This document shows positions 42,379 through 63,855 of a stretch of DNA of 64,000 nt, in pieces. The stretch covers positions 26,905 through 90,904 of the forward strand of contig JACPLO010000010.1 of assembly GCA_016186495.1 (NCBI GenBank), written 5' to 3'. Source of the stretch: Candidatus Niyogibacteria bacterium. GTDB taxonomy: Bacteria > Patescibacteriota > Minisyncoccia > JACROR01. Under the pieces are notes generated by a model that was not told where the DNA came from, ran no database searches, and saw nothing but the letters and a program-made list of their open reading frames with translations. Positions within the stretch are counted from its first letter, which is position 1. Every line of letters starts with the position of its first letter. The position numbers and the translations under genes are program-made.

Positions 42379-42380
42379 AT

Positions 42381-44258: not shown

Positions 44259-44376
44259 CGTTTCCTCCTTTTTCTTAAAAAATTTAAAAGAACCGCGATA
44301 TTCAATATCGTATGAAAAAATTCATAAAAAAACAACTTCTCTGGATGCGCCGGAAAATTCGGAGTATTATAGACCA

Positions 44377-45986: not shown

Positions 45987-46302
45987 GCGCGGGAGAGGAT
46001 TTGGTCACAAATAAATTTCCTGACGGAAATTTTTCGCGACCCCGCCTCGCTTGTTCCGCTTCGCGGAACATCGTTCGGCTTTCAAATCCTCACGCGAACA
46101 AAGCAGTTTGTTCGCTTCCCGCGCCAATTCACCGTGTTCATTATGCGCGGGAGAGGATTTGGTCACAAATAAATTTCCTGACGGAAATTTTTTGCGACCC
46201 CGCCTCGCTTGTTCCGCTTCGCGGAACATCGCTGTGGCTTTCAAATCCTCACGCGAACAAAGCAGTTTGTTCGCTTCCCGCGCTAATTCACCGTGTTCAT
46301 TA
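45987..46302. repeat. 2 x ~159-bp tandem repeat downstream of tRNA-Leu(GAG); each unit starts with a copy of the tRNA 3' end (GCGCGGGAGAGGATTTG) followed by GTCACAAATAAATTTCCTGACGGAAA and two hairpins
   Basis: units from 45987 and 46145 ~97% identical; hairpins GTTCCGCTTCGCGGAAC and GCGAACAAAGCAGTTTGTTCGC; generates spurious ORFs on both strands. Confidence 0.8.
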
Positions 46303-46385
46303 TGCGCGGGAGAGGATTTGAACCTCCACGCCTTGCGGCATACGCCCCTCAAGCGTACGTGTCTACCGGGTTCCACCACCCGCGC
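46303..46385 (-). tRNA. tRNA-Leu (anticodon GAG), long variable arm
   Basis: minus strand GCGCGGG...GTG-GAACCCGGTAGA-CAC...TACGC-TTGAGGG-GCGTA...TGCCGCAAGGCGTG...GGTTCAAATCC...CCCGCGC-A. Confidence 0.7.
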
Positions 46386-46389
46386 ATTT

Positions 46390-46869
46390 TTATTCTTTTT
46401 TGGTTTCAGGAAGTTTTTCTTTTGTTTCCAGAGTGTTTTTTTCTTCAGCCGCGGCCGGTTTTTCCGTTTGAGTTGATAAAAGCATTATAGCTTCGGTTTT
46501 TAATTGTTTCATTTTCTTTTTGATTTCTTTGGCGGCTTTTTCGCGGATATGATAAAGCTTGGCGCGCCGGGTTTTTGAACGGCGCACCAGTTCTATTTTT
46601 TCAATATTAGGAGAATACAATGGGAAAACGCGTTCAACGCCAAAGCCGCCGCTCAATCGCCTGACCGTAAAAGTCGCTCCGGATTCGGCGCCGTGTTTTT
46701 TGGCGATGATTATTCCTTCAAAAGCCTGAAGCCGCGTTTTATCGCCTTCTTTGATTTTCTGCCAGACGCGCACCGTGTCTCCGGAACGAATGTCCGTTTT
46801 TTTTCTTTCTTTCATATTAACCGGCAAAAAATTGGCTGATATTACTGGCATATTAAATCTTTTTATCAC
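46390..46869 (-). CDS. rplS: 50S ribosomal protein L19 with Lys-rich C-terminal extension
   Basis: [32 protein letters not shown]...[13 protein letters not shown] typical L19. Confidence 0.85.
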
Positions 46870-46925
46870 AAATTTTAATTTTAATCAAACCCCCGCATTT
46901 ATAATAAGTGCGGGGGTTAAATGTT

Positions 46926-47612
46926 TCATTTCAATTTTTCCAGCGTATTTTTTAAATCTTCGGGCAAATCCGCTTCAAGTTTAAGGCGAGAACCGGCCGG
47001 CAAAGTCAATTCTAAAGAAAAAGCATGCAGGAAATGCCGTTTAAGGCCATTCGGGCATCGGAATAATTTTCCCGCGTAAAGCTGGTCGCAAGCTAACGGA
47101 TAGCCGATGGCTTTCAGATGCGTTCTTATCTGATGGGTGCGGCCGGTTTTCGGCTCAAGTTCAAGCAAAGTGTAGCCGTTGAATTTTTTCAAAACCTTAT
47201 AATAAGTAAGGGCTTCGCGCAATCGGCCGGAGGCTCTGACGCTGGCCGCGCGCTTAATGGGATTTTTTTTGGCGCGGCCGATCGGCAAATTTATTTTGCC
47301 TTTTTTTTGCCGGATTTCGCCGATTGCCAAAGCAAGATATTTTTTAACGATTTTTTGCCGCTGGAATTGTTTTTTTAAATAATCAAAAGTTTCCTGATTT
47401 TTTGCGATAAGTAAAATTCCGGAAGTGTCTTTGTCCAGCCGATGGACAACGCCGGGCCGCGCCGGATTATCTCCCACTTTTTTAATTTCCGGCCTTATCT
47501 CTGTTATTTTATCTATTAAAGTTTCTTTTTTGTGGTGGGCGTCGGGATGAACCACCAAGCCAGCCGGTTTATTGACCGCTAAAAGATCGCGGTCTTCGTA
47601 AATAATTTCCAT
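46926..47612 (-). CDS. RluA-family pseudouridine synthase (RluD-like)
   Basis: HRLDKDTSGILLIAK catalytic Asp motif; 228 aa. Confidence 0.8.
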   Translation of the reverse strand: MEIIYEDRDLLAVNKPAGLVVHPDAHHKKETLIDKITEIRPEIKKVGDNPARPGVVHRLDKDTSGILLIAKNQETFDYLKKQFQRQKIVKKYLALAIGEIRQKKGKINLPIGRAKKNPIKRAASVRASGRLREALTYYKVLKKFNGYTLLELEPKTGRTHQIRTHLKAIGYPLACDQLYAGKLFRCPNGLKRHFLHAFSLELTLPAGSRLKLEADLPEDLKNTLEKLK

Positions 47613-47689
47613 AAAATATTTAAAAGCGTATAATTAAATAATAGTCGATTTTTTAATGAAAAATAAATAGCAATTCAATAAAAGATAAT

Positions 47690-47926
47690 ATGAAGAAAGT
47701 AATTATTTATTCTACTCCGACCTGCGGTTATTGCCATATGGCCAAAGATTTTTTTAAGGAACATAACATAGATTATACGGATTATGATGTTGCGGCGGAT
47801 GATGCCAAGAGGCAGGAAATGATTGACCGTTCCGGCCAAATGGGCGTGCCGGTCATTGATATTGACGGCGAATTAACAATCGGATTTGACGAACAAAAAA
47901 TATCCAAACTTTTAGGAATTAAATAA
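47690..47926 (+). CDS. glutaredoxin-like protein (NrdH/YruB type)
   Basis: 78 aa; YSTPTCGYCHMAK CxxC motif. Confidence 0.7.
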   Translation: MKKVIIYSTPTCGYCHMAKDFFKEHNIDYTDYDVAADDAKRQEMIDRSGQMGVPVIDIDGELTIGFDEQKISKLLGIK

Positions 47927-48654
47927 TGGTTTCAAAGTGGCTTCAACAAAGTAATTCCTGGCATGAAAACAAGCATATCAAAGGAGGGCAATATTTAAAG
48001 AATATTGTTTATGGCGCCAATGACGGGATTATCACTACTTTTGCGGTGGTGGCCGGCGTAGCCGGAGCTTCTCTTTCTTCCGTTGTTATTGTGATTATGG
48101 GTTTGGTTAATCTTTTAGCGGACGGATTTTCAATGGCTGTTTCTAATTATCTTAGCATTAAATCAGAAATAGATATTTATCAGCGCGAAAAAGAAGTGGA
48201 AAAGAAAGAGATTCAAATTAATCCCGAACAGGAGAAAAAAGAAATCCGCAATATTTTAGCCAGCAAGGGTTATCAGGGAGAAGATTTGGAAAAAATAACG
48301 GCGCTGATTTCCAAAAATAAAACTTTTTGGCTTGATTTTATGATGCATGAAGAATTGAATTTTGCGCCCGCCGCCAGTTATCGGCCTAAAAGAGCGGCTC
48401 TCGCCACTTTTTTATCTTTTATCGCCGCCGGTTTTGTGCCGATTTTGCCTTATTTGATTTTTAAGGGAAGCGGAGACGAAGTATTTAAATACGCGGTGGC
48501 GATGACCGGCGTTGCTCTTTTTACGGTTGGTTCTTTACGCTCATTTTTTACTAATAAAAAATGGCATTTAGCCGGTTTAGAAATGCTTTTTGTCGGCAGT
48601 ATTGCCGCGGCGATCGCTTACGGCGCGGGATTTTTATTGAAAGGAATTACTTAA
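47926..48654 (+). CDS. VIT1/CCC1-family membrane protein (iron/manganese transporter-like)
   Basis: GANDGIITTFAVVAGVAGA signature; 242 aa. Confidence 0.7.
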   Translation: MVSKWLQQSNSWHENKHIKGGQYLKNIVYGANDGIITTFAVVAGVAGASLSSVVIVIMGLVNLLADGFSMAVSNYLSIKSEIDIYQREKEVEKKEIQINPEQEKKEIRNILASKGYQGEDLEKITALISKNKTFWLDFMMHEELNFAPAASYRPKRAALATFLSFIAAGFVPILPYLIFKGSGDEVFKYAVAMTGVALFTVGSLRSFFTNKKWHLAGLEMLFVGSIAAAIAYGAGFLLKGIT

Positions 48655-48692
48655 CTTTCTTTTGTTCTTCAAGCTGCAAAAGCACAGCGCTT

Positions 48693-49748
48693 TTAAATTT
48701 CTTCCAATTCAACTTGGGTTTGCGTTTTCTTCCCATTGCGAAGAATGGTCAGATTTATTTTTTCGCCGATTTTGAAGTTGGAGAGAATGTCCTCCAAAGT
48801 ATTTTCTTCGTTGATTTCTTTTTCATTGCATTTCAGCACAATGTCAAATTCTTGAAGGCCGGCTTTATCCGCGGGACTGTTTGAAATAATCGCGGTTTCT
48901 CCTTGAGGCAGGCCTTCGCTGACAATCAGCGCGCCGGTTGAGACCGGCAGATGAAATCTTTCTTGGATTTGATCGTTCAAAATAATATGGCGGAGTCCGA
49001 TAAAAGGGCGCCGGATGCGGCCGTATTTTTTAATTTCTTCCAAATCGCGTTTGGCTCTTTCAATGGGAATGGCAAAGCCGATATTTTGGGCGCCGAAAAC
49101 AACGGCGGAATTTATGCCGATAGCCCGGCCCTCAAGATCAATCATCGGTCCGCCGGAATTGCCGGGATTAATTGCCGCGTCGGTTTGAATAAGCCCTTTC
49201 AGCCGTTCTTGATGGCCGGCCATATCCGTTACCGCGGTGATTAAACGCGAGAGGCCGGAAACTACGCCGGTGGAAACCGTATTTTGAAATTCGTTTAAAG
49301 CATTGCCAATGGCGATGACGGTTTGCCCCAATTCCAAATCAAACGAAGAGCCTAATTCCAAGTGAGGAAGATTTTTACTTTTTATTTTTAAAATCGCTAC
49401 GTCATTTAAAGGATCTCTGGCCAGCACTTCGGCTTCATGTTTTTTCCCGCCGCCCATGATTATGCTGTATTCGGCGTCAGGATCAACCACCACGTGTTTA
49501 TTGGTTAAAATAATTCCCTCGGGGGAGATGACAAAACCGGATCCGCCTCCGACTTTAATATGCCCATGTTCGTCTTTGGGCGCTTGTTTTAATTTAGTTT
49601 CAATAAAAGCGCGGTCATAAGGATTGTTAAATAAAGGATTAAAAGAAAGTTCTTTGGCAATTTGTTCCAGGTCTTTGGAAATTGCCACGCTGACGACGGC
49701 CGGTAAAGTTTTTTTAACCGCATTTTTAATTTTTTGTTCGTAATCCAT
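48693..49748 (-). CDS. htrA: HtrA/DegP-family serine protease with PDZ domain
   Basis: GNSGGPMIDLEGRAIGINSA; TNKHVV (His), D...; C-terminal PDZ. Confidence 0.8.
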   Translation of the reverse strand: MDYEQKIKNAVKKTLPAVVSVAISKDLEQIAKELSFNPLFNNPYDRAFIETKLKQAPKDEHGHIKVGGGSGFVISPEGIILTNKHVVVDPDAEYSIIMGGGKKHEAEVLARDPLNDVAILKIKSKNLPHLELGSSFDLELGQTVIAIGNALNEFQNTVSTGVVSGLSRLITAVTDMAGHQERLKGLIQTDAAINPGNSGGPMIDLEGRAIGINSAVVFGAQNIGFAIPIERAKRDLEEIKKYGRIRRPFIGLRHIILNDQIQERFHLPVSTGALIVSEGLPQGETAIISNSPADKAGLQEFDIVLKCNEKEINEENTLEDILSNFKIGEKINLTILRNGKKTQTQVELEEI

Positions 49749-49888
49749 AATATAAGTTTGATTTTAACGCTGATAATGTATTATACTACGTATAATTTAC
49801 ATTCGCTCGGCAATGAACGGCAATGAAAAATTAATTTTTCTTTCATTGTTCTCGCTCATTTAATTATAAAGTATAGCATATTATTTTT

Positions 49889-49961
49889 CTCCTCGTAGTT
49901 CAACGGACCAGAACAACCCCGTCCTAAGGGGTAAATAGAGGTTCGATTCCTCTCGAGGAGA
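49889..49961 (+). tRNA. tRNA-Arg (anticodon CCT)
   Basis: CTCCTCG acceptor / CGAGGAG-A; anticodon stem ACCCC/GGGGT loop GTCCTAA; T-arm AGAGG-TTCGATT-CCTCT. Confidence 0.7.
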
Positions 49962-49984
49962 TTAAGTTTTGTTTTTTAAAACAG

Positions 49985-50056
49985 GCGCGCTTAGCTCAGT
50001 GGTAGAGCATCGCTTTTACACAGCGAGGGCCGGGGGTTCAATCCCCTCAGCGCGCA
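49985..50056 (+). tRNA. tRNA-Val (anticodon TAC)
   Basis: GCGCGCT acceptor, TAGCTCAGTGGTAGAGC, loop TTTACAC, GGTTCAATCC, AGCGCGC-A. Confidence 0.75.
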
Positions 50057-50328
50057 AAAAAATGAATGAAGTGAATTTTTGAGTGCGTTGAGCAAGCCAA
50101 CTGCTTGGCTTGCGCAGGGGATTGAAAAAATTTTCTATATCGCGAAGCGATAGAAAATTAGCGCCCTGCAAGGGCAATCCCCTCAGCGCGCAAAAAAATG
50201 AATGAAGTGAATTTTTGAGTGCGTTGAGCAAGCCAACTGCTTGGCTTGCGCAGGGGATTGAAAAAATTTTCTATATCGCAAAGCGATAGAAAATTAGCGC
50301 CCTGCAAGGGCAATCCCCTCAGCGCGCA
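50057..50328. repeat. 2 x 136-bp tandem repeat downstream of tRNA-Val(TAC), each unit ending with a copy of the tRNA 3' end (CAATCCCCTCAGCGCGCA)
   Basis: units 50057-50192 and 50193-50328 nearly identical; internal hairpins TTTCTATATCGC-GAA-GCGATAGAAA and GCAAGCCAA-CTG-CTTGGCTTGC; also an inverted partial copy GCGCAGGGGATTG. Confidence 0.8.
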
Positions 50329-50352
50329 CAAAAAATTATTATAATTATTAAA

Positions 50353-50435
50353 GGAAGGGTGCGCCGAATGGCAAGGCACCGCTCTCGAAAAGCGGAGCCC
50401 GCAAGGGCTTGTGGGTTCAAGTCCCACCCCTTCCG
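50353..50435 (+). tRNA. tRNA-Ser (anticodon CGA), long variable arm
   Basis: GGAAGGG acceptor; anticodon stem CCGCT/AGCGG loop CTCGAAA; variable arm GCCCGCAAGGGC; GGGTTCAAGTCCC; CCCTTCC-G. Confidence 0.75.
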
Positions 50436-50660
50436 TAAAAGTTAAATGGGTGGGACTTGAACGGAGCGATATTATCGCTCCGAGGAATTTCCTTAAGAGG
50501 AAATTAAGTCCCACCCCTTCCGTAAAAGTTAAATGGGTGGGACTTGGTCACAAATAATTTTCCTGACGGAAAATTATCGCGACCCCGCCTCGCGGCGCTC
50601 GCCTTTGCTTCGCAAAACTCGCGCATCGCTGCGGTTTTCAAATTCCAACGGAATTTGAAC
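50436..50660. repeat. structured repeat downstream of tRNA-Ser(CGA): TAAAAGTTAAATGGGTGGGACTTG twice, a copy of the tRNA 3' end (AAGTCCCACCCCTTCCG at ~50505-50522), palindromes GGAGCGATATTATCGCTCC and AATTTCCTTAAGAGGAAATT, then a GTCACAAATAATTTTCCTGACGGAAA family element
   Basis: read directly; the GTCACAAATAA...CGCGACCCCGCCTCGC segment matches the 45987-46302 repeat units. Confidence 0.75.
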
Positions 50661-50750
50661 GGAGCGATATTATCATCCGCGAGATTTTTTTATACGCGCG
50701 CATTACTCAATAAAATTGAAAAAATTTTTAAAAAAGGTATAATAAAATTC

Positions 50751-51215
50751 ATGAAATTCTTTAATGAAGATATTGTTTATTTCGCGGCCGGAACAGCGAT
50801 CGCGGCGATTTTAATTTTTATTTGGCTTATTATTTTGGAATGGCGGCTGAAAAAACTTTTTAAAGGAAGCGACGGCCGCGATCTGATGGGGATTTTAACC
50901 GGCCGCGGAAAAGAATTGAACGGCCTAAAAAAAAGAATGCTGGAAATAGAAAAATATCTTCAAGAATCCGAACTGCGCCTTCAAAAAAGCCTTAAAAATG
51001 TAGGATTGGTGAGATTTGATTCTTTTGAAGGAGTGGGCGGAAAGCAAAGTTTTTCAGCCGCGTTTTTAGATGAAAATAAAAACGGAACGGTTATTTCCAG
51101 CCTTTACGGCCGTGATTTTAACAGGATTTACGCCAAACCTGTGGAAAGCGGCATTTCGTCCCATTCGCTTTCGGAAGAAGAAAAAGAAGCGATCAAGAAA
51201 GCAATCAGCGAATAG
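50751..51215 (+). CDS. DUF4446-like small membrane-anchored protein
   Basis: start moved to ATG 50751 (MKFFNEDIVYFAAG...); the track ORF's first 69 codons are translation of the repeat element. Confidence 0.5.
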   Translation: MKFFNEDIVYFAAGTAIAAILIFIWLIILEWRLKKLFKGSDGRDLMGILTGRGKELNGLKKRMLEIEKYLQESELRLQKSLKNVGLVRFDSFEGVGGKQSFSAAFLDENKNGTVISSLYGRDFNRIYAKPVESGISSHSLSEEEKEAIKKAISE

Positions 51216-51266
51216 CTATAAGTGTTTTTATTTTTCTCATCGTAAATAATTCAATGTTTAATTTTT

Positions 51267-52841
51267 ATGTCTACCGAGCAGAAAAAAAATTTAATCCGCC
51301 AAAATTTACCTTCGGTAAACTTAAGTGGGAAAATCTCTCGTCCGCCGGTTGTCGTGGTTGTCGGCCATATTGATCATGGAAAAACCAAACTTTTGGATTA
51401 TATCCGAAAAAGCAATATCGCGGAAAAAGAATCAGGCGGCATTACCCAGCATATCGGCGCTTATGAAGCGGTAATCAATACCAAAGACGGCCGAACGGAA
51501 AAAATAACTTTTTTGGATACGCCGGGGCATGAGGCGTTTTCTCAAATTCGCTCACGTGGCGCCAAAGCGGCGGACGTGGCGATTTTAGTGGTGGCGGCGG
51601 ATGAAGGTGTTAAACCGCAAACTGAAGAATCAATCAAAGTTTTGAAAGACGCGAATTTGCCTTTTGTGGTGGCGATTAATAAAATTGACAAAGAAGGAGC
51701 GGATTCGGAAAAAGTTAAAAAAGAATTGGCGGAACGGGAAATTTTGGTGGAAAGCTGGGGCGGCAAGGTGCCGGCCGTGGAAATTTCCGCAAAACAAGGA
51801 ACCGGCGTGAAAGAACTTTTAGAAACTATTATTTTATTAGCTCAACTTGAGGAATTAAAAGCGGATCCAAGAATACCCGCCAAAGGCGTGGTTATTGAAT
51901 CCAGTTTAGAGCCGAAAAGGGGAAATGCGGCCACGCTTTTAATTCAGGACGGAACATTAAAAATCGGAAATTTCGTAGCGGCCGGAAACGCGATTTCTTC
52001 GGTTCGCGTTTTTGAGGATTTTTTAGGCCATTCTTTAAAAGAAGCTAGTTTTTCTTCGCCGGTCAGGGTGGTGGGATTTGATTATTTGCCGCCGGCAGGG
52101 ACGGTTTTTTCGGCTTTTCTTTCTAAAAAAGAGGCGGAAAAATTCTCAGCTAAAGAGAAAATAAGCAAAGATTTTTTGAAGGAAAAGGAAAAAAAAATAA
52201 TCAAAGAAGCGCCGGCCGCTTCCTTAATAATCGTGCCGGTGATTTTGAAAGCCGACACCTCCGGTTCTTTGGAAGCGCTTGAAAAAGAAGCGAAAAAATT
52301 TGATTCGGAAAAATTGAAAATAAAAATTTTGAAATCAGGCACCGGGCCAATTTCGGAAGATGATTTTAAAGTCGCTCTCAGCGCTCCTGAAACGATTATT
52401 TTATCTTTTCGGGCCGGCCTTGACGAAAAAATCATCGAGCTGCTTAGCCGCCGCGGCGTGATTTTCAAGAATTTTGAGATTATTTATGAAGCCAGTGATT
52501 GGCTTAAAGAGCAATTGGAAAAAAAATTGCCGCTTGAAATAGAAAGAACGGAAATCGGCCAAGCCAAGATTTTAAAATTATTTAAAAAATCCGGCCAAAA
52601 ACAAGTTATCGGCGGCAAAATAATTGACGGCTTGGTTAAAAACGAAGCGAGGTTTGAAATTATCAGAAATGAGCATAAAATCGGCGAAGGCAGAATAATA
52701 GAGCTCCAGCAAGCCAAAATTAAAACAAAAGAAGCGGCCAAAGGCAGTGAATTCGGAATTTTAGCCGATGCGGAAATAAGCATTGAGCCGGGAGATATTC
52801 TGCGTTTTTTTGAAGAAAAAACAATTAAACAAACATTATAA
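51267..52841 (+). CDS. infB: translation initiation factor IF-2 (short form, G domain to C-terminus)
   Basis: GHIDHGKT, DTPGH, NKID G-motifs; 524 aa; followed by rbfA as in the canonical operon. Confidence 0.85.
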   Translation: MSTEQKKNLIRQNLPSVNLSGKISRPPVVVVVGHIDHGKTKLLDYIRKSNIAEKESGGITQHIGAYEAVINTKDGRTEKITFLDTPGHEAFSQIRSRGAKAADVAILVVAADEGVKPQTEESIKVLKDANLPFVVAINKIDKEGADSEKVKKELAEREILVESWGGKVPAVEISAKQGTGVKELLETIILLAQLEELKADPRIPAKGVVIESSLEPKRGNAATLLIQDGTLKIGNFVAAGNAISSVRVFEDFLGHSLKEASFSSPVRVVGFDYLPPAGTVFSAFLSKKEAEKFSAKEKISKDFLKEKEKKIIKEAPAASLIIVPVILKADTSGSLEALEKEAKKFDSEKLKIKILKSGTGPISEDDFKVALSAPETIILSFRAGLDEKIIELLSRRGVIFKNFEIIYEASDWLKEQLEKKLPLEIERTEIGQAKILKLFKKSGQKQVIGGKIIDGLVKNEARFEIIRNEHKIGEGRIIELQQAKIKTKEAAKGSEFGILADAEISIEPGDILRFFEEKTIKQTL

Positions 52842-53174
52842 ATGTCCAATTTAAGGCAGGAAAAAATTTCTTCTCTTTTGAAGCGGTTGGCCGCCGAGTT
52901 TTTTTTGAAGAACGTGGGAGAGATCGGCGTTTTAGCGAGCGTGACTAAAGTGGAGATTTCCGCTGATTTGTTTAACGCTAAGATATTTTTTTCCGTTTTG
53001 CCTGAAAGTGAGGAAAGAAAAATTTTAAAACAGCTGTTCGCGCTTAAAAAAGATTTCCGGCGGCATATCGCGCACAATTTAAAAATAAAATTTATTCCTC
53101 GTGTTATTTTCCTGATAGATGATTCAATTAAAAAACAGCGAAAAATAGACGAGGCTTTGGCTGCTTTAAAGTAA
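52842..53174 (+). CDS. rbfA: ribosome-binding factor A
   Basis: 110 aa; start overlaps infB stop (TAAATG); RbfA-like KH fold sequence pattern. Confidence 0.75.
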   Translation: MSNLRQEKISSLLKRLAAEFFLKNVGEIGVLASVTKVEISADLFNAKIFFSVLPESEERKILKQLFALKKDFRRHIAHNLKIKFIPRVIFLIDDSIKKQRKIDEALAALK

Positions 53175-53214
53175 TCTAAGGTATAATATTTATGGCCTCC
53201 TGCAACACGCATTT

Positions 53215-53286
53215 GGCACGGTGGCGAAGAGGTAACGCGGTCGTCTGCAAAACGACTATGCGAGGGTTCGAATCCCTCCCGTGCCT
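53215..53286 (+). tRNA. tRNA-Cys (anticodon GCA)
   Basis: GGCACGG acceptor / CCGTGCC-T; anticodon stem GTCGT/ACGAC loop CTGCAAA; GGGTTCGAATCCC; TATAAT -10-like hexamer at 53181-53186. Confidence 0.75.
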
Positions 53287-53363
53287 ATTATAATTGTTAG
53301 TTATAAATTTTTGTTGTAGGTTATAAAAAACGCCCGGGTGGCAAAATTTGCCCCCACGTTAAT

Positions 53364-53456
53364 GCCGCGGTGGCGGAATTGGTATACGCGCACGACTTAA
53401 AATCGTGTCACTTTTTGTGATGAGGGTTCGACCCCCTCCCGCGGCATTAATGTAGG
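53364..53456 (+). tRNA. tRNA-Leu (anticodon TAA), long variable arm
   Basis: GCCGCGG acceptor; loop CTTAAAA; variable arm TCACTTTTTGTGATG; GGGTTCGACCCCC; CCGCGGC-A. Confidence 0.8.
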
Positions 53457-53495
53457 GGTGAATATCCGCACAACATTTATAATTCAAAACAATTT

Positions 53496-54431
53496 ATGCC
53501 GTTAACGATAAAAGAAAATGAAATTTTAGCTAATCATTCAACTTTCAGAATTGGCGGACCGGCCAAGTATTTTACTGCTGTTAAATCAAAAGAAGAATTG
53601 ATTGAGGCGTTTGATTTCGCGGGAAAAAAAAATCTGCCTTTTTTTGTTTTTGGCGGCGGAAGCAATATCCTATATCGCGATAAAGGATACGGCGGTTTGG
53701 CTATAAAAATCCAAAATTCAAAAATTTCACTTGCCAAAATTATCAAGGCTGGAGCCGGAACTTTATTTAGCCAGTTGATTAGAGAGTCAATTAACGCTAA
53801 TTTAACTGGCTTGGAATGGGCAACGGGAATTCCCGGGACTGTTGGCGGCGCGGTGGCCGGCAATGCCGGCGCTTACGGCCATTCCATATCCGAATTTGTG
53901 AAGAATGTCGCGATTTTAAGCAATAACGGAGCCGCGGGTTGGCGGATAAAAAATTATCCGGCCCAAAAATGCGATTTTATTTATCGCGGAAGCAGATTCA
54001 AAAAACCGGATAATCGTGAAATTATTTTAGAGGTTGAATTTAATTTGGAAAAAGGCGATTTAGAAAAAAGCAAAAAAATAATCCAAGGAATTTTGGAGGA
54101 AAGAAGAAACAAACTCGTTTCTTATCCTTCGGCCGGCTGCGTGTTTAAAAATATCATTATTGATGAATTAAAAAACAAAGAGGAATTTTTAAAATTAATT
54201 CCGCGGAATAAAATCAAAGGAGGAAAATTTCCGGCGGGCTGGCTGATTGAGAATTGCGGATTAAAGGGCAAGCAAATCGGCGGCGCTAAGATCGCGGAAG
54301 AACATGCTAATTATATTGTTAACGCCGGAGGAGCGACCGCCGATGATGTAATTCAACTGATTGATTTTTGCAGACAAAAAACGCAGGAAAAATTTAATCT
54401 GGATTTAGAAAAAGAAATCGTTGTAATATAA
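53496..54431 (+). CDS. murB: UDP-N-acetylenolpyruvoylglucosamine reductase
   Basis: 311 aa; FAD-binding N-terminal (FRIGGPAKYF...FVFGGGSNIL), C-terminal MurB domain (GCVFKN, GGAKI). Confidence 0.85.
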   Translation: MPLTIKENEILANHSTFRIGGPAKYFTAVKSKEELIEAFDFAGKKNLPFFVFGGGSNILYRDKGYGGLAIKIQNSKISLAKIIKAGAGTLFSQLIRESINANLTGLEWATGIPGTVGGAVAGNAGAYGHSISEFVKNVAILSNNGAAGWRIKNYPAQKCDFIYRGSRFKKPDNREIILEVEFNLEKGDLEKSKKIIQGILEERRNKLVSYPSAGCVFKNIIIDELKNKEEFLKLIPRNKIKGGKFPAGWLIENCGLKGKQIGGAKIAEEHANYIVNAGGATADDVIQLIDFCRQKTQEKFNLDLEKEIVVI

Positions 54432-54457
54432 TTTAATAAAATTATCCTCTTTAAAAT

Positions 54458-54541
54458 GCTGGGGTGGCGGAATTGGCAGACGCTCTAGCTTTAGAAGCTA
54501 GCGGGAGAAATCCCATAAGAGTTCAAATCTCTTCCCCAGCA
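54458..54541 (+). tRNA. tRNA-Leu (anticodon TAG), long variable arm
   Basis: GCTGGGG acceptor; anticodon stem CTAGC/GCTAG loop TTTAGAA; variable arm CGGGAGAAATCCCATA; GAGTTCAAATCTC; CCCCAGC-A. Confidence 0.8.
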
Positions 54542-54618
54542 TATCACATATCAGTAGAGAAAATCGCTAAAATTTTATCCACTTTTCTTTTGTTAAACTA
54601 ATGTTATAATAAAAGTAT

Positions 54619-55170
54619 ATGGTAAAAATTTTTTTTAAAGCTCTTATTTGGGGTATTGCGGTCTTGATTATATTGAATGTTTTAATTTTCTTTGGCGCGG
54701 GATTTTATGGCGGTTTTACCGTTAGTAATCTCGGCGTTTATGTTCCGCCAACTTTTATTATTATTTTTCGTTATGCTTCTTTGTTTTTGGCTTTCGGCGT
54801 TGCCGTCTTTGTTTTTTTAACAAGAAAAAAACAAATGCCGCCTTTATTTTCTCAATCTTCTCAACCGCCTCCTTTGCAAACATTTCCGCCTTTTATGCCG
54901 CCTGAATCAAAGCCGCCTGTTTCTCCGTTGGAAAAACCTTTCAAACAATTTGAATTTCCAAAAGAATTTCCGCCTGTCCAGCCGTCAGAGCCGACTCCGA
55001 TATTTCCGAAAAACCAAAATCAATCGCCTGTTTCTTTCGGTTCCGACAGTTTAGATTCTATGCCTATGCCTTCAAAAAATCAGCCGTCCGCGCCTTTTGA
55101 TTCCAAAGAGCTAAAATCTCCTTTTGAAGAAAAAAAGGAAGAAGAAAAAGGCGATATTCACTCGTTTTAG
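54619..55170 (+). CDS. membrane protein with Pro-rich extracellular tail
   Basis: 183 aa; two N-terminal TM helices then PPxxPP-rich low-complexity region. Confidence 0.35.
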   Translation: MVKIFFKALIWGIAVLIILNVLIFFGAGFYGGFTVSNLGVYVPPTFIIIFRYASLFLAFGVAVFVFLTRKKQMPPLFSQSSQPPPLQTFPPFMPPESKPPVSPLEKPFKQFEFPKEFPPVQPSEPTPIFPKNQNQSPVSFGSDSLDSMPMPSKNQPSAPFDSKELKSPFEEKKEEEKGDIHSF

Positions 55171-55192
55171 CCGCAGCGTAATTTATCTTAAA

Positions 55193-55267
55193 GCGGTCAT
55201 CGTATAATGGCTATTATGCGTCCTTGCCAAGGACGAAACGGGGGTTCGATTCCCCCTGACCGCACCA
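55193..55267 (+). tRNA. tRNA-Gly (anticodon GCC), encoded CCA
   Basis: GCGGTCA acceptor; anticodon stem CGTCC/GGACG loop TTGCCAA; GGGGGTTCGATTCCCCC; TGACCGC-A-CCA. Confidence 0.8.
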
Positions 55268-56022: not shown

Positions 56023-57075
56023 TCAATAAAAATCTTTTATTTTTAACGCTAATTTTATTTTCAGCGTTAATTCTTCTTTTTGCCGGAGTATTTTTATTTC
56101 TACAATTGTGCCCGGCTTCTGAAAGGTTATTGCTCTTTCTATGTCTATGAAATTTCTTTGAGGTTTACCGTCTATTTCTAATATGACATCGCCTGGCCAC
56201 AAATTAGCATCTTGAGCCGGACTATCGGGGCAGACCTTAGTAATTAACAAACCCAAAATTTTTTTATTGGAATAGATATCTATTCCAATAAAACTTTTGC
56301 TTATTGGCCCTTTTTCCAGAAGTTGAGGGATGATAATGGCAATATCTTCACTTGAGATAGCCAGACTCATTCCTGAAGGTGAAAATCTGACATTTAAGCC
56401 GAGTAATTCGCCTTTGGCATTGATTAACGGCCCGCCGGAATTTCCCGGAACCATCAGTGCGTCAGAAATGATAAAGTGTTGCGGTATCTTTTTTGTTGTT
56501 GTTTTTATCACCGCCAATGCTTTGGAAATAACGCCTTTATCGAGAGACCAGGAAATCCCAAATGGGTGCCCAATCGTAAATATGGCTTGGCCGATTGCCG
56601 CGTTTCTTCCGAATTTAAAATAATCGGAATTATTAAAATCTATCTTTAATAAAGCCAAATCATTCTCCGAGTCATATCCGATTAATTGGGCAATCGCGCA
56701 TTCCACTTTTCCATAATTTTCATTAAAATCAAGATTTTCTATCTCGCCATTCGGCGGAAAATAACAAACCTCAATCTCTCCTTCGTCTTCCCTGATCATT
56801 TCAATAATATGGTAAGCGGTTAAAATATACCCGTTTTCTTTTATAAAAGCGCCGGCTCCGGTAATATTATGTTCGCGTCCATCCGTTTTTCTCGGCAGTT
56901 TAATCCTGACAATCACCACTTTTTTCATCGCTTCAATAAGTATTTTTTGTTCAGCAAGTATTTCTTGTTCAGCCATATTCGCCGGATCAAGTGTTTCAGA
57001 AAATGCGGGAGAAAGAAAAATAAAAAATAATGCCGCCAAAAACGTTAAAATCCGCTTCATTCTTATTTTTTTCAA
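56023..57075 (-). CDS. secreted trypsin-like (S1C/HtrA-type) serine protease with C-terminal PDZ
   Basis: signal peptide; TAYHII (His), GNSGGPLINAKGELLGLN (Ser); PDZ-like C-terminus. Confidence 0.75.
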   Translation of the reverse strand: MKKIRMKRILTFLAALFFIFLSPAFSETLDPANMAEQEILAEQKILIEAMKKVVIVRIKLPRKTDGREHNITGAGAFIKENGYILTAYHIIEMIREDEGEIEVCYFPPNGEIENLDFNENYGKVECAIAQLIGYDSENDLALLKIDFNNSDYFKFGRNAAIGQAIFTIGHPFGISWSLDKGVISKALAVIKTTTKKIPQHFIISDALMVPGNSGGPLINAKGELLGLNVRFSPSGMSLAISSEDIAIIIPQLLEKGPISKSFIGIDIYSNKKILGLLITKVCPDSPAQDANLWPGDVILEIDGKPQRNFIDIERAITFQKPGTIVEIKILRQKEELTLKIKLALKIKDFY

Positions 57076-57380
57076 TTTAATTCCCTCCTTTTATTCTTTA
57101 TTTAAATTTAAAAGTTCTAAAAAAAAATTCTGAAGGCTGGCCTTCAGAACAATATAAAAACTCCCCTTTAAGAATAGAGTCGTTTCCAGTTTTCACTGGA
57201 AGCCCTTTTTCTTAAAGTTTAATTAATTTTAATTCAAGCCAAAAAATTTGTCAAATTTTTCATCTGATTGCGCAATAATCGGACAAACAAGTAAAATTAG
57301 TTGTTAAATAAGCAATTTTGTTTTACCATAGGGTAAAGAATTCTTTGATAATTAAACTTTAACGAATGGAATAAACGGAG

Positions 57381-58376
57381 GTGAAAATGGCTGATAAAAA
57401 GAGTAAAAAAATCAGAGATGACATTAGAAACGATCTTATAGAAATTCCCGCTTTATTTTTTATTAATTACATTCTTTTGCCCGGCAGCGAATATGAAATA
57501 ACGCTCAATAAATTGCCGCAAATTTCTGAAAAAAATTACTTGAAATTGAAAATCATTCTCAATGAGCGGTATCAGAAGCAAATGGAAATAGCGATTGTCT
57601 GTTTTGAACGGACAGATTCCACTGTTTGTTTGCGGGAATGGGGCGTTATCGCCAGAATAACCGGCTTATTTCCGTTTAGAATTGACGCTTCACCCCTTGA
57701 TTTGCGGGTGCGAGTGATGGGACGTTGCCGGGTTTTCAGTTTTTCCCAAAATGAAGAACAAGATAATTGTTTTTTCGCGGCTATAAAAATCGCGCCTGTT
57801 CTGGCTATCAGCGAAGAAGAATGGCAAAGCAATGAAATCCAGAAATTAAAAAACGGCATTATTGAAGATTTTTTTGAATTTGCCGGTATTTGCGCGGAGA
57901 TTGCTGCGATTTTTTCCGAGAATAATCATAAAGATAAAGAAGAGAAATTTCTTTTTTTGTTTTTATTTTCTCAAAAAACCGCGATTAGCATGGAACTTTG
58001 TTTAAATTTTAAAGAATTCATTAAAATCATAAATGAATGGCTGGATTGCGTTTGTCTGGAAAAAGAAGCGGTTTTTAGTTATAAATTTCGTTTTTTAAGC
58101 TTGGATGGCGAACGCCAGCAGATGCGAATGATAAAAAATACGATAAATAATTTAATTGGCATGGCGGAAAATACGTTATTAAAGGGGGATTCCCCGTCTT
58201 TTAAAGAAGATTTATGGTCAGGAAAGAGAAATTTTTCAGCTGAAAACCGCCAATCATCGGAAAAATATGAAAGAGATTTTTCCGCCGCTCAAAAAGAATT
58301 ATCGGAGCGTTTGGAAGAGGTCTTAAAAAAACTGAACCTTTTAAAAAATGTTTTGACGGGAGGTGAAGAAAAATGA
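57381..58376 (+). CDS. stand-alone Lon N-terminal (LonN substrate-binding)-like domain protein
   Basis: IPALFFINYILLPGSEYEITL resembles the Lon N-domain start (lPvlPlr..vlfPg..lpl); central beta-rich region then a helical C-terminus; 4-bp overlap (ATGA) with the next gene. Confidence 0.45.
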   Translation: MKMADKKSKKIRDDIRNDLIEIPALFFINYILLPGSEYEITLNKLPQISEKNYLKLKIILNERYQKQMEIAIVCFERTDSTVCLREWGVIARITGLFPFRIDASPLDLRVRVMGRCRVFSFSQNEEQDNCFFAAIKIAPVLAISEEEWQSNEIQKLKNGIIEDFFEFAGICAEIAAIFSENNHKDKEEKFLFLFLFSQKTAISMELCLNFKEFIKIINEWLDCVCLEKEAVFSYKFRFLSLDGERQQMRMIKNTINNLIGMAENTLLKGDSPSFKEDLWSGKRNFSAENRQSSEKYERDFSAAQKELSERLEEVLKKLNLLKNVLTGGEEK

Positions 58377-59596
58377 CGATGGCTGATAAGGCGCAGGTTT
58401 TTGATTTCTCTCCGGGCAGGGCGGAAAAAAACATTATTTCTCATCTTAACCGATTTGTGGTTGGCCAAGAAAGAGCTAAAAAAAGAATAGTTGACATTGT
58501 TTTGCGCCGGGAAACCGGTTTTCGCGATCCGCGCCGGCCTTTAGGAGTGATTTTTCTTTTAGGTCCGACCGGCGTGGGAAAAACAGAATTGATTAAAGCG
58601 ACCGCTGATTTTTTGTTCGGTAATCTTGGCGCTTATACTCACATTAGCTGCCCTAATTTTCAAAACGGGCATGAAATTTCTCAATTAATCGGTTCGCCGG
58701 CCGGATATGTCGGCTATAATCAGGAACCGTTTTTATCGCAAAACAACATTGATAAACATGATTTTTACCGCCGAATGGAAATGATTGAAGATTTTGAAAA
58801 GCGGCTAAAATATCATAGTGAATCAATAAAATCAATAAATTCCGCCAATTTGAAACAGGAAAAAGAATCAATATTAAAAGAAATAGAATCTTTAATAGAG
58901 AGAATCTGGGTATTAAAAAATCAATTAAAAAATAAAAGATTTTTTTCGCTGGTGCTTTTTGATGAATTTGAAAAAGCTCATCCCAAGCTTCAGGAAATGC
59001 TTTTGGAAATTTTAAGCGACGGCGCGCTTTCTCTAATGAGCGGCAAAAGGGTGGATTTTACCAACACCATTATCGCTTTAACCGGAAATATCGCCAGCAA
59101 AGAGATTAAAGAAGAAATGAGCGGATCTAAAATCGGCCTTCGTTTTCATTCCGAGCTGACGGAAAATTCTTCTAAAAGAATCTATAAGATAGTTTTAGCC
59201 AGATTGGAAAAAACCGTTTCGCCGGAAATTTTGGGCCGAATCGGCAAGGAAGGCGTTGAGGTTTGTAATTTTCTAAACCAAGAAGAAATGGCCGAAGTTT
59301 TAGAACTTCAAATAAAAGGATTGGAGGAACGTGTAAAAAATAACGCAAAGGCGTTCAAACTTTATATCTGTGAAGGCGTAAAACAATTTCTGCTAAGCGA
59401 AATTCAAGACCGGACAAATATCTTTTTGGGCGCTCGCGCGCTTTTGAATGTTTTTAAAAAAAGAATTGAAAATCCTCTGAATAAGCTACTGGCCAAAGAT
59501 GAAGATGAAGGCGGCATTGCCAAGGGGGATATTGTGAAAATTCGGCTTAAAAAAAGCAAAGATAAAGAAGAACTGGAATTTACGCGCCAAATCTAA
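58373..59596 (+). CDS. single-ring Clp/Hsp100 D2-type AAA+ ATPase (ClpA/ClpC-like, with IGL ClpP-docking-type loop)
   Basis: Walker A GPTGVGKTE; LIGSPAGYVGY (Clp D2 signature); Walker B VLFDEFEKAH; sensor region VDFTNTIIALTGN; SKIGLRFH (IGL tripeptide); C-terminal ...GARALLNVFKKRIENPL small domain; no N-domain or D1. Confidence 0.7.
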   Translation: MTMADKAQVFDFSPGRAEKNIISHLNRFVVGQERAKKRIVDIVLRRETGFRDPRRPLGVIFLLGPTGVGKTELIKATADFLFGNLGAYTHISCPNFQNGHEISQLIGSPAGYVGYNQEPFLSQNNIDKHDFYRRMEMIEDFEKRLKYHSESIKSINSANLKQEKESILKEIESLIERIWVLKNQLKNKRFFSLVLFDEFEKAHPKLQEMLLEILSDGALSLMSGKRVDFTNTIIALTGNIASKEIKEEMSGSKIGLRFHSELTENSSKRIYKIVLARLEKTVSPEILGRIGKEGVEVCNFLNQEEMAEVLELQIKGLEERVKNNAKAFKLYICEGVKQFLLSEIQDRTNIFLGARALLNVFKKRIENPLNKLLAKDEDEGGIAKGDIVKIRLKKSKDKEELEFTRQI

Positions 59597-59664
59597 AAAT
59601 TATTTAATTTTTAAAAAAGCAATCTGTAACGGATTGCTTTTTTCTTTTTTCGCCGCTATAATGA

Positions 59665-59772
59665 ATCCCGTTAGAAATCAAAACCTTAAAATGTTATTTA
59701 GACCAATAAAATGTTTTATTATTAACCACAGCAGTTTTTAGAAATTTCTAAAGGAACTATTTCTAACGGGAT
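59665..59772. mobile_element. MITE-like element, CCGTTAGAAA family (108-bp copy)
   Basis: ATCCCGTTAGAAAT ... ATTTCTAACGGGAT perfect inverted repeat; ATGAATC-like flanking duplication; intergenic between the Clp-like ATPase and uvrA. Confidence 0.6.
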
Positions 59773-59808
59773 GAATCATTAAATTATTAAACTAATAAAA
59801 CATAATTT

Positions 59809-62721
59809 ATGGCCGGGCAAAAAAAGAAGAACCAAAATTTCATCAGCATCAAGGGAGCGTGCGTCCATAATTTGAAAAATATTTCTTTAGATATCCCGAA
59901 AAATAAATTAACGGTTATTACCGGACTTTCCGGATCGGGGAAATCATCTTTGGCGTTTGACACGATTTACGCCGAAGCCGAGCGCCGCTTGCTGGATTCT
60001 TTTTCCGGTTATGCCCGCCAATTTTTAAACGTTAAAAACAAGCCCGAAGTGGAAGAGATTTCCGGTCTATCTCCGGCCATTGCCATTAACCAAAAAAATC
60101 TGGCGAAAAATTCTCGCTCCACGGTCGGCACGATTACTGAAATTTATGATTATTTGCGGGCGCTTTTTGTCCGGTTGGGAGAGCCGCAATGCCCGAAATG
60201 CGGAAAACTTCTTAAAAAACAGACCGTTGAGGAAATGTTTCAGGCAATTATGCGAGAGAGCCGCCAAAAGGCGGGCCGTTTGCTCTTTATTTTTGCCATT
60301 TTGGCGCGCGCAAAAAAAGGAGAACATAAAAAAGCGCTGGAGGGAATAAGAAAACAAGGATTTTTAAGGGTTAGAATTGACGGCGGCATTATGAGAATTG
60401 AAGAAGCGCTTGATTTAGATTTAGATTACAAAAAAAAACATACTCTTGAGGTGGTGGTTGATCGTTTGATTTTGGATAAAGAAACGGAAAAAGCGCGTTT
60501 AATGGAATCTCTTGAAACCGCGCTTTCTCTTGGTAAAGGAACGGCGGTCGTTTCCTTGGCTGACGGCCAAGCCGCGTCTTCAGCCGTTGAATTTGTTTCT
60601 TTCAAAGGCGCTCAAGAAATAATTTTCAGCCGGAATTTTTCCTGCGTTGACTGCGGTTTTTCTTTGGCGGCTTTGGAACCGCGGCTTTTTTCTTTCAATA
60701 ATCCGCAGGGGGCTTGCGAAAAATGCAGCGGTCTGGGAAATTGTTTGGAAGCGGATCCGGAATTGATTATTCCTAATAAGGATTTGACGCTGGCGGAAGG
60801 GGCAATCCATCCTTGGGCGCGTTTTTCTTCGGCCGCGGGCAAAGAATCTTGGCAGGAATGGATGCTGAAAGATTTGGCCCAGAAGCATAAATTCAGTTTG
60901 AATGTGCCGGTTAAAAATTTATCAAAAAAAGCCGTTGAATTGGTGATTTTTGGCGATTCGGCTTGCCGACCGGAAGATAAGGCCGGAAATTTTCAAGGCG
61001 TGGCGGCTGATCTTAAAAAACGGTGGCGCGAAACTGATTCGGAAAGAACGCGTTCGGAATTGGAACGTTATATGAGAGAAACTCTTTGTTCGGCTTGCGG
61101 AGGAAAAAGATTAAAATTGGAAGCGCGGTCAATATTTTTAAATTTAAGCGATAAGAAAAAATACAGCATAACTGATATCTCTAAAATGCCGGTTAGCCGG
61201 CTGCTCGCGTTTTTCAGCCGGCTTTCCGGTAATCTTCAAAAAAAACAAGCCGCGCTGGCGACTCCTTTGATTTCTGAAATAATAAAACGTTTGCGATCTT
61301 TAACGGAAGTGGGATTGGATTATCTTACTTTGGAAAGATCTTCGGTTGATTTAGCCGGCGGCGAAGCTCAACGCCTCAAATTAGCGACACAAATTAGTTC
61401 TGATTTGACCGGCGTAATTTACGTTTTAGATGAACCATCAATCGGGCTCCATCCCCAAGATCATCATCGCCTTTTAATGGCGCTTAAGAATTTAAGAGAT
61501 GCCGGCAATACGGTTTTGGTGGTGGAACATGATCTGGAAACCATTAAATCCGCGGATTGGATTATTGATCTCGGTCCCGGCGCGGGCCGCGGCGGCGGCG
61601 AAATAATTTTTGAAGGGACGCCGAACGAATTAAAACGGGTTAAAACTCTCACTGCCGATTATTTTACCGCCAGAAAAAAAGTGGAAATCGTTGACCATAA
61701 ATTTTTAAAATCAAATTCAAAAATTTTAAAACTTACGATTAAAGGCGCGAGCGAACATAATTTGAAAGGCATTGACGTAAAAATTCCTTTAGGATTATTG
61801 GTTTGCGTGTCCGGCGTTTCCGGTTCGGGAAAAAGCACTTTAATCGGCGATATTTTAGCTTTGGCTTTACGCCGTCATTTTTACGGCGCCAAGGATTTGC
61901 CGGGAAAACATAAAGAAATTACCGGAATGGAACATTTGGATAAGGTTGTGATCGTGGATCAGTCGCCGATCGGCCGGACACCGCGCTCCAATCCCGTCAC
62001 TTACACCGGCATTTTTTCTTTTATGCGCGACCTTTTCGCTGAAAATCAGGAAGGCCGGCGCCGCGGTTTTAAAACAAGCCATTTTAGTTTTAACGTTAAA
62101 GGCGGGCGTTGCGAAGAATGTGAAGGACAGGGGATGAAAAAAATAGAAATGGTTTTTTTGCCGGATATTTACGTGGAATGCGAAGAATGCCGCGGCGCCA
62201 GATATTGTCGGGAGGTTCTTGACGTGCGCCATAATAATCTGAACATCGCCGAGGCGCTGGATTTGCCTGTAGAAGAAGCGCTTGTTTTTTTTAAAGACAT
62301 TCCTCAAATTCAGCGGCGTTTGGCGGTTTTGGCGGAAGTAGGTTTGGGATATTTAAAACTCGGCCAGCCGGCGACGACTCTTTCGGGCGGGGAAGCCCAG
62401 CGGGTCAAACTGGCCGACGAGCTGGCGATAAAAGAAACCGGCCGAACGCTCTATATTTTAGACGAACCGACAACCGGTCTTCATAGCGCTGATACGCAAA
62501 AACTTTTATCCATTCTTTCTTCTTTAGTGAAAAAAGGGAATTCTGTTTTGATAGTTGAACATAATCTTGAAATAATAAAAAATGCCGATTGGATTATTGA
62601 TTTAGGGCCGGAAGGAGGCGAAAAAGGCGGAGAAATCGTGGCGGAAGGCACGGTTGAAGATCTTATTAAAAATAAAAAATCTCAAACCGGCCAATGGCTG
62701 GCCCGCGCGCTTAAATTTTAG
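59809..62721 (+). CDS. uvrA: excinuclease ABC subunit A
   Basis: 970 aa; two ABC modules ([18 protein letters not shown]), LSGGE signatures, zinc-finger CxxC pairs. Confidence 0.95.
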
Positions 62722-62819: not shown

Positions 62820-63617
62820 TTGATATTGGAAAATAATCAGATTGATTTAGATGAAGGGGCGTGGCGCTGGCTTTTTGACAACAGGACGGAAATTGAAATA
62901 GCGATGATTATTAACGCCGTTTGGCTTGATCCGGCGTATAAAATTAATGTTCTAAAATTTGGAAAGGAAATAAAAATAAATAGAAAAGCGGATGGATTGT
63001 TTTTCCGCCATTTTTCGTCGGCGAATAAAAACAGCCGCCATCATCGCCGGCCAAGATCAATCGGCGGCAAGAGCGGCGGTCAAAACGTTATTTTGGTGAA
63101 TCGCGATGATCATTGGGCGTGGCATAAATTATTCCGCAATTTTAGGCCCGATAAAATTGTGGAAAAAATAAACAGAAAATTTCTTTATTTAAATTCCGAT
63201 TATTGTTTTAAGCTTGTTTATTTGGCGGACCCTGAAGCCGGTAATGGCGTGGATAAAGAATCTTTGTTTTGTTGTGAAATATGCGGCGAGTCGTATTTTA
63301 GCGAAATGGAAGCCAGAAAATGCCGGAAACAAGGATGGCTGGCGCCGCGTTTTGCTTGCGGTGAAAGAGTGCTGATAAAAATAAAAGGTTGCTCGCCTCA
63401 AATAGGCACGATCGCGGGTTGGGATAACGCTTTTTCAATTAATTTTCATTTTTATGAAATGTATCTCGTGGAGACGGGGAACGGAGTGATGAAAAATGTG
63501 AATGCCAAGAAAATAAAATATGTTTTGAAAAATAACGGGCGCAGAGAAAAAAGAAAAAAACACGTTGTTTTTTCTAAAAAAGCGTTTAAAAAAGCGATAA
63601 AAAGGAAAAAATTTTAA
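62820..63617 (+). CDS. HNH-like nuclease-domain protein with C-terminal Cys4 zinc ribbon and basic tail
   Basis: TTG start after GGAGGT; SRHHRRPRSIGGKSGGQNVILVNRDDHWAWHKLF fits HH..P.S.GG....N..L.....H...H (HNH without Cys ligands); FCCEICGE...CRKQG...ACGE. Confidence 0.4.
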   Translation: MILENNQIDLDEGAWRWLFDNRTEIEIAMIINAVWLDPAYKINVLKFGKEIKINRKADGLFFRHFSSANKNSRHHRRPRSIGGKSGGQNVILVNRDDHWAWHKLFRNFRPDKIVEKINRKFLYLNSDYCFKLVYLADPEAGNGVDKESLFCCEICGESYFSEMEARKCRKQGWLAPRFACGERVLIKIKGCSPQIGTIAGWDNAFSINFHFYEMYLVETGNGVMKNVNAKKIKYVLKNNGRREKRKKHVVFSKKAFKKAIKRKKF

Positions 63618-63773: not shown

Positions 63774-63855
63774 TTGACAGAGTTTTTAATTTGTCTAAAA
63801 TACTTACATTAGCAATCTTTGGTCAAGACTGCTAAATCTAAATTTTATTTGAATT

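Follow-up and report, generated by a model that had tools for sequence, protein, structure and literature searches.

Two adjacent open reading frames (ORFs) in a 64,000-nucleotide stretch of a Candidatus Niyogibacteria genome (contig JACPLO010000010.1, positions 26,905 to 90,904; hereafter the window, in whose numbering coordinates are given) encode a stand-alone protein resembling the N-terminal domain of Lon (Lon-N) and a single-ring Clp/Hsp100 AAA+ ATPase with only the second ring module (D2). The two genes, ORF1 (57387-58376, +; 329 aa) and ORF2 (58373-59596, +; 407 aa; assigned by domain, structure and fold searches), are well supported by sequence comparison as one conserved unit. AAA+ proteases combine a substrate receptor with a motor and a chamber for peptidolysis; in Lon these form a single chain, and Clp systems keep them apart and use unrelated adaptors. 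The best explanation for the ORF1-ORF2 unit, which we hold at about even confidence, is an ATP-dependent protease, functionally analogous to Lon and built from Clp parts, of which the two proteins would be the dedicated adaptor-unfoldase pair.

The ORF1 family is tiny. A search of 5.8 billion clustered proteins gave 6-7 matches, an exhaustive HMMER scan of 1.84 billion representatives gave 7 clusters, and a scan of the GTDB species genomes with alignment A1 gave a single locus (L012). Five of the seven clusters were looked up directly; P0132 was represented by a similar 322-aa protein whose gene precedes that of the P0013 ATPase in L004, and the seventh, P0128, is a hybrid of 180 aa. Wherever the locus of a family lineage could be read (6 of 6), a D2-only ATPase was encoded immediately downstream of the ORF1 homolog, usually overlapping it, in line with an earlier note on this DNA that had treated the two genes as a unit. 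The pair-bearing lineages are those of the window and L013, L001 and L003, L012, L007, L004 and L005, L008, L009 and L010, and L011, between which ORF1 identity drops to approximately 20% and the partnered ATPases keep 30-50%. In a neighbor-joining tree of the AAA core the partnered ATPases formed a monophyletic group (92/100), outside which fell other D2-only proteins and the D2 rings of ClpB, ClpC and ClpA. As both ORFs have conserved homologs, they represent real genes and not chance reading frames. Two cases depart from the usual form. At L002 (6907-8277, P0006 lineage) the ATPase was called only as a 106-aa C-terminal piece, which reflects either a disrupted copy or an assembly error, and P0128 joins the first half of a P0006-type Lon-N-like protein to a HepT-like C-terminus, being either a rearrangement or an assembly chimera.

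As read from the DNA, the ATGA overlap of 4 bp, in which ORF2 begins inside the end of ORF1, and an intrinsic terminator at 59613-59643 (+; a 14-bp stem followed by a T-run), which closes the operon before uvrA, mark the pair as a discrete two-gene operon with predicted translational coupling. A Shine-Dalgarno sequence, GGAGG, was read at 57377-57381 (+) for ORF1, and ORF2 is preceded by a GGAGG of its own. The earlier note had given the overlap and the ORF2 coordinates correctly and had followed the ORF list in starting ORF1 at GTG 57381; ATG 57387 is instead favored by independent gene calls and by the NCBI protein of a Candidatus Niyogibacteria metagenome-assembled genome, which is 329 aa long and 100% identical to ORF1 from this ATG, and the ORF1 span is accordingly taken as 57387-58376. 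A promoter scan returned one weak sigma-70-like site upstream of ORF1 (57323-57352, +), in which the 9 of 12 positions matched are not above chance. The GC content of the operon is 37%, compared with 41% for the window.

Pfam searches of ORF2 identified AAA_2 (3.7e-33, in two pieces) and ClpB_D2-small (4.3e-7) and no Clp_N, D1, AAA_lid_9 or peptidase domain, with nothing found N-terminally, which agrees with the earlier description of a D2-only protein lacking an N-domain and a D1 ring. Among NCBIfam models ORF2 matched only the D2 part of ClpB, ClpV, ClpA and ClpK, far under the equivalog cutoffs (class-1 equivalog scores of 184, 142 and 155 bits, with cutoffs of 1232, 993 and 885), and since its 407 aa span D2 alone, it falls outside the two-ring class-1 Clp/Hsp100 proteins (ClpA, ClpB and ClpC), which have D1 plus D2, Clp_N and, in ClpB and ClpC, the M-domain. 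It is likewise neither a ClpX (23.6 bits against equivalog NF003745, cutoff 359, the match being limited to residues 18-81) nor an HslU (22.2 bits against equivalog TIGR00390, cutoff 362). The nearest relatives with solved structures are nucleotide-binding domain 2 (NBD2) of Thermus thermophilus ClpB (1e-43) and ClpC/ClpC1 (approximately 4e-41), and the mitochondrial single-ring protein CLPB/Skd3 was also among the matches. The AF2 (AlphaFold2) model of ORF2 is confident (predicted local distance difference test, pLDDT, 89.5), and its best Foldseek matches were ClpC chains in MecA/ClpC/ClpP and ClpC1P1P2 complexes, together with ClpB NBD2.

The D2 module of ORF2 is complete, and the motifs that the earlier note had quoted were all present. 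Walker A (GPTGVGKT, residues 64-71, 58562-58585, +) has invariant G64, G67, G69, K70 and T71; the segment LIGSPAGYVGY (residues 105-115) includes the pore-1 loop GYVG (residues 111-114, 58703-58714, +), in which G111 and Y112 are invariant or nearly so; and Walker B (VLFDE, residues 194-198, 58952-58966, +) has invariant D197 and E198. Sensor-1 (T237/N239), the arginine finger (R289) and the GAR sensor-2 motif (residues 353-355; G353 and R355) are also invariant across ORF2 relatives. Given this invariance of all catalytic motifs, the motor should be active, as judged from its residues.

Between the pore loop and Walker B, where ClpB and ClpC have approximately 7 residues, ORF2 carries a 64-residue helical hairpin (residues 123-186, with helices at 123-154 and 158-186; 58739-58930, +), seen both in alignments and in the model, where the region is confidently predicted. 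The hairpin, which did not figure in the earlier note, interrupts the alignments of ORF2 with AAA_2, ClpB and ClpC. All eight partnered ATPases have an insertion at this site, and in the five that were measured the gap from GYVG to Walker B is 72-82 residues.

The possible connection to ClpP lies in a tripeptide, IGL (residues 254-256, 59132-59140, +), which the earlier note had assigned to the position of the ClpP-docking loop. In an alignment that included UVR-containing ClpC fragments, a ClpA-annotated fragment, and ClpB and TssH fragments, IGL fell column for column on the LGF of the UVR-containing ClpC fragments, and ClpB-type sequences were gapped there, so that by alignment position the assignment holds and ORF2 has the [LIV]-G-[FL] loop of ClpP-coupled unfoldases. 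G255 is invariant in alignment A3, and the motif [ILMF]-G-[FL] is kept in all partnered relatives as IGL, IGF, MGF, FGF or LGF. The loop (residues 253-261) is the only low-confidence stretch of the ORF2 model (pLDDT <50) and is predicted to be flexible, consistent with the surface exposure that docking would call for.

The assignment of ORF1 as Lon-N-like, also proposed in the earlier note, was borne out by fold comparison. Direct searches of ORF1 against Pfam, NCBIfam, PDB sequences, PADLOC and PHROG gave no meaningful match, and a profile of eight ORF1-family members recovered only coiled-coil noise from the PDB sequences, so the Lon-N assignment rests on structure prediction and on relatives. 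The top 50 Foldseek matches of the ORF1 model were all Lon-N, full-length LonA, BPP1347 or cereblon (best 3.9e-10), and full-length LonA structures aligned with it over 306-323 columns. LON_substr_bdg was matched by two of the eight family members (best 1.4e-5), and precomputed annotations of this domain exist for P0004 (unmarked), P0130 (weak) and P0129 (faint). In the AF2 model a beta-rich domain (residues 18-136) is followed by a helical domain (143-265), which is the subdomain order of the Lon-N fold, then by a disordered linker (267-299) and a long C-terminal amphipathic helix (about 291-323) ending in a tail of Gly and acidic residues. The most conserved positions of the family are the nearly invariant P32/G33 ('PG') of the N-terminal strand and the invariant W146. 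In the family alignments the C-terminal helix ranks with the better-conserved segments, and the linker is variable and is deleted in P0006. This layout of substrate domain, flexible tether and conserved terminal docking element would be that of a tethering adaptor. No match to Lon_C/S16 peptidase was found in either ORF, so that, as the earlier note had observed, neither carries a peptidase module, and the pair is distinct from LonA, in which a Lon-type AAA+ module and S16 are fused.

Two kinds of ClpP-family protein could serve as the peptidase. The window encodes a canonical clpP at 34957-35592 (-), where the earlier note had placed it (CLP_protease, 2.1e-81), which scores 312 bits against the NCBIfam ClpP-subunit subfamily NF001368 (above the 249-bit cutoff) and 307.0 bits against the clpP equivalog TIGR00493 (cutoff 308.6). 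It adjoins an M50 peptidase gene, with no clpX seen beside it, and the 64-kb window holds no Clp-type AAA+ gene besides ORF2. In two diverged sub-lineages, L008 and L010, the gene order is Lon-N-like, ATPase and ClpP-like, with the ClpP-like gene directly downstream of the pair (L008 7595-8182, 195 aa; L010 2783-3379, 198 aa). These two proteins match CLP_protease over the full profile (5e-14 and 3.5e-8); they share 43% identity, and their identity with the window ClpP is 21-25%. The window contains no copy of this divergent gene, and two metagenome scans seeded with the ClpP-like neighbors found nothing, so that the linkage rests on these two loci.

On the adaptor-unfoldase explanation, ORF2, with its ATPase and pore-loop residues intact, would assemble as one hexameric ring like the D2 rings of ClpC and ClpB, pass substrates along the pore and dock onto ClpP by way of its [I/L/M/F]-G-[F/L] loops. 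The peptidase partner in the window genome would be the housekeeping ClpP encoded at 34957-35592, and in some relatives the dedicated divergent ClpP-like protein encoded directly downstream. ORF1 would be the substrate receptor, its Lon-N-like beta-rich and helical domains capturing substrates and its variable-length linker and conserved C-terminal amphipathic helix tethering it to ORF2. The likeliest docking site for ORF1 would be the helical hairpin on the entry face of ORF2. Physical binding of ORF1 to ORF2 and the interface between them, docking to ClpP and substrate delivery are all inferred steps of this model. The persistence of the loop motif in lineages that have no dedicated peptidase suggests that docking to a ring of the ClpP family has been retained.

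Several observations weigh against this explanation. ORF1 itself did not match PF02190 (LON_substr_bdg) at E<=1, and its AF2 model is of moderate confidence (pLDDT 69.8). ORF2 scores equally well against ClpB, a ClpP-independent disaggregase, and ClpC. Unpartnered D2-only relatives with no clpP nearby have the LGF motif as well, and P0017 has a longer hairpin and no ORF1-like neighbor, so the hairpin is not exclusive to partnered ATPases, and we rejected it as a strict marker of partnership with ORF1. The window clpP is unlinked, 22 kb from the operon, and no ClpP-like gene adjoins the pair in most lineages (L001, L004, L007 and L011). Where one does, its product is very divergent and under the curated ClpP cutoffs, with the catalytic Ser and His kept and the Asp replaced at the aligned position, so that the L008 and L010 proteins could be inactive or act otherwise.

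The same observations leave room for a chaperone or remodeler that acts independently of ClpP, in which ORF2 would be a stand-alone single-ring disaggregase or unfoldase resembling ClpB D2 or CLPB/Skd3, ORF1 a substrate-binding or regulatory cofactor, and the LGF-type loop a relic or a contact of another kind. We consider this unlikely, while granting it a real share of our belief. It would accommodate the best sequence matches of ORF2, which include ClpB NBD2 and CLPB/Skd3, the unlinked clpP in the window and most lineages, the ClpP-like neighbors that lack the aligned Asp, and the conserved synteny of the unit with groES-groEL. However, the loop motif is wholly missing from ClpB types and yet kept by all partnered ATPases at 30-50% identity, a ClpP-family gene directly follows the pair in two branches, ORF2 has no M-domain or element for coupling to DnaK, and the CIRCE operator found in this region stands before groES only, with none upstream of the pair.

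The adaptor-unfoldase explanation can be extended to a previously unrecognized AAA+ protease with three components in Patescibacteria, a 'Lon in pieces' in which the C-terminal helix of a Lon-N receptor would dock on an I-domain-like hairpin of a Clp-D2 motor that feeds a ClpP-family peptidase. L008 and L010 lie in different branches of the partnered-ATPase clade, and the three-gene arrangement is thus most simply ancestral, with later loss in the lineage of the window. In the extended account the dedicated ClpP of the same operon would have been lost from this lineage and the motor rewired to the housekeeping ClpP. This fuller scheme is possible, and we hold it to be less likely than not.

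Another explanation, which we regard as improbable, is a factor linked to DNA repair, with nucleotide-excision-repair proteins or stalled complexes as the targets of the pair, which would for example turn over or remodel UvrA. It draws on the genomic neighborhood: uvrA directly follows the pair, or the pair and its ClpP-like gene, in every sub-lineage in which the downstream region is visible (window 59809-62721; same position in L001, L004, L007, L008, L011 and L013), and uvrC is encoded divergently upstream of the pair in L008. Lon binds DNA, and E. coli ClpXP reportedly degrades UvrA. Set against this are the strong terminator between ORF2 and uvrA, the absence of any DNA-binding or repair domain detected in ORF1 or ORF2 with Pfam and NCBIfam, and the tendency of reduced Patescibacteria genomes to keep synteny without a functional link. 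A role in repair is compatible with, and not exclusive of, an adaptor-unfoldase pair. Least credible of all, and very improbable in our estimate, is an anti-phage defense module related to Dodola (DolB) or to the candidate system PDC-M37, or a phage-derived cassette, to which weak PADLOC matches of ORF2 (PDC-M37B, 1.8e-21; DolB, 6.8e-16), its match to PHROG 4871 ('ATP-dependent protease') and the about equal scores of the L008 and L010 ClpP-like proteins against phage head-maturation proteases would point, but the PADLOC scores lie far under those for ClpB/ClpC and so reflect generic D2 similarity, ORF1 has no PADLOC or PHROG match and hence supplies no DolA or PDC-M37A partner of the kind that, with a strong ATPase match, defines these systems, the synteny with secG, uvrA and groESL is a stable housekeeping one over deep divergence and not a variable island, nothing in the context points to mobility, and a viral origin was rejected given that no viral contig encodes an ORF1 relative.

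The gene upstream of the pair varies, being htrA in the window and MNT/HepT, SBP_bac_5, secG or uvrC in other lineages. The S1/PDZ protease encoded divergently at 56023-57075, which the earlier note had left as possibly related, is a normal HtrA, and because every other lineage has a different upstream neighbor we rejected it as part of the unit. The MNT/HepT genes form a toxin-antitoxin pair located just upstream of the operon in L001 (5001-5861). Downstream, uvrA is followed by a 255-295-aa gene and then by groES-groEL in the window/L013, L001 and L004, where the contig reaches. In the window the intervening gene (62820-63617, +) encodes a 263-265-aa protein with no Pfam match; in L001, L004 and L013 this site, after uvrA and before groES, is likewise taken by a gene of 255-295 aa without a strong Pfam match. 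A CIRCE-like HrcA operator precedes groES in the window (63809-63835; TTAGCAATC-N9-GACTGCTAA, 2 mismatches, 0.01 expected by chance). As it occurs only before groES, control of the pair by HrcA was rejected. A 21-nt inverted repeat (59658-59678 / 59759-59779, 86% complementary, with its arms 80 nt apart) sits between the operon terminator and the start of uvrA at 59809 and has no Rfam match, and an Rfam scan of the operon and its flanks gave no credible match. Elsewhere in the window, twelve tRNA genes are spread over approximately 19 kb (36689-55267), several of them in short clusters.

Outside the partnered clade, D2-only relatives with an LGF loop and no ORF1-like neighbor were found in P0015, P0017 and P0114. 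At L006, L014 and L015 the neighbors of D2-only LGF-type ATPases are a HEAT-repeat protein (P0015), a full-length ClpB/C on the opposite strand (P0017) or no evident partner. The occurrence of such ATPases beside differing neighbors suggests that single-ring unfoldases of the ClpC-like kind make up a wider class that has been little studied. At 407 aa, ORF2 would offer a minimal ClpC-like unfoldase for mechanistic work. If the three-component scheme is true, ORF1 would be the first protein of Lon-N fold to act in trans as an adaptor of a Clp machine. The union of a Lon-type receptor with a Clp-type motor, and in some lineages a ClpP-type peptidase, would also mean that such modules are exchangeable between Lon and Clp systems. 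A testable trans-adaptor role would then follow for the widespread and functionally obscure stand-alone Lon-N-like proteins, and the pair would show how ultra-reduced Patescibacteria organize regulated proteolysis. The reach of these implications is limited by the rarity of the family and by functional claims that are all computational.

Among known systems, LonA shares with ORF1 the Lon N-terminal fold, including its helical part and the long C-terminal helix, and the gene order of receptor, ATPase and peptidase in L008 and L010 is the domain order of Lon. In contrast to Lon, each of the three is a polypeptide of its own, the motor has a Clp D2 module in place of a Lon-type one, and the peptidase belongs to the ClpP family (S14) and not to S16. 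With ClpC-ClpP and ClpA-ClpP, ORF2 shares a D2 ring that has its [LIV]-G-[FL] docking loop at the same alignment position, and in structure it comes closest to the ClpC chains of ClpC/ClpP complexes. The role proposed for ORF1 follows the logic of the separate substrate-delivering adaptors of ClpC and ClpA (MecA, McsB and ClpS). However, ORF2 has none of the known adaptor-binding sites (N-domain, D1 ring and M-domain) and carries the new 64-residue hairpin in its D2, and the Lon-N fold of ORF1 is unrelated to MecA and ClpS.

ClpX and HslU, of the HCLR clade, are likewise one-ring unfoldases that serve a separate peptidase, as is proposed for ORF2, and ClpX works with IGF loops and with tethering adaptors, among them SspB. 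The arrangement of SspB (substrate domain, flexible linker and C-terminal docking peptide) is much like the layout predicted for ORF1. The I-domain of HslU follows the GYVG pore loop and precedes Walker B, on the substrate-entry face, and the ORF2 hairpin would occupy the corresponding site. Unlike ClpX, ORF2 has no zinc-binding N-domain; it is clearly ClpB/ClpC-D2-like, with scores of approximately 23 bits against the ClpX and HslU equivalogs. Compared with BPP1347 (PDB 1zbo), the Xanthomonas Lon N-terminal domain protein (7cay) and cereblon, to which its sequence similarity is negligible in Pfam and PDB sequence searches, ORF1 is longer, having an extra helical region, the linker and the conserved C-terminal helix, and is strictly coupled to an AAA+ gene.

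Searches of the open-access literature turned up no description of an operon of Lon-N-like and D2-only genes or of a Clp adaptor with a Lon-N fold, in line with the earlier note, which had not recognized the architecture as a described one. The ATPase by itself is not new, as apicoplast-encoded ClpC proteins with only AAA_2 and ClpB_D2-small are already known (PMC4184790), and AAA_2 and ClpB_D2-small without D1 are also the composition that ORF2 shares with CLPB/Skd3, DolB and PDC-M37B. No pairing with a Lon-N-like protein is known for any of these D2-only proteins, and the partnered ATPases differ from them in forming their own clade, with the hairpin and family-specific insertions. D2-only Clp ATPases and stand-alone Lon-N-like proteins are each known already, and what appears to be new is their pairing in one unit.

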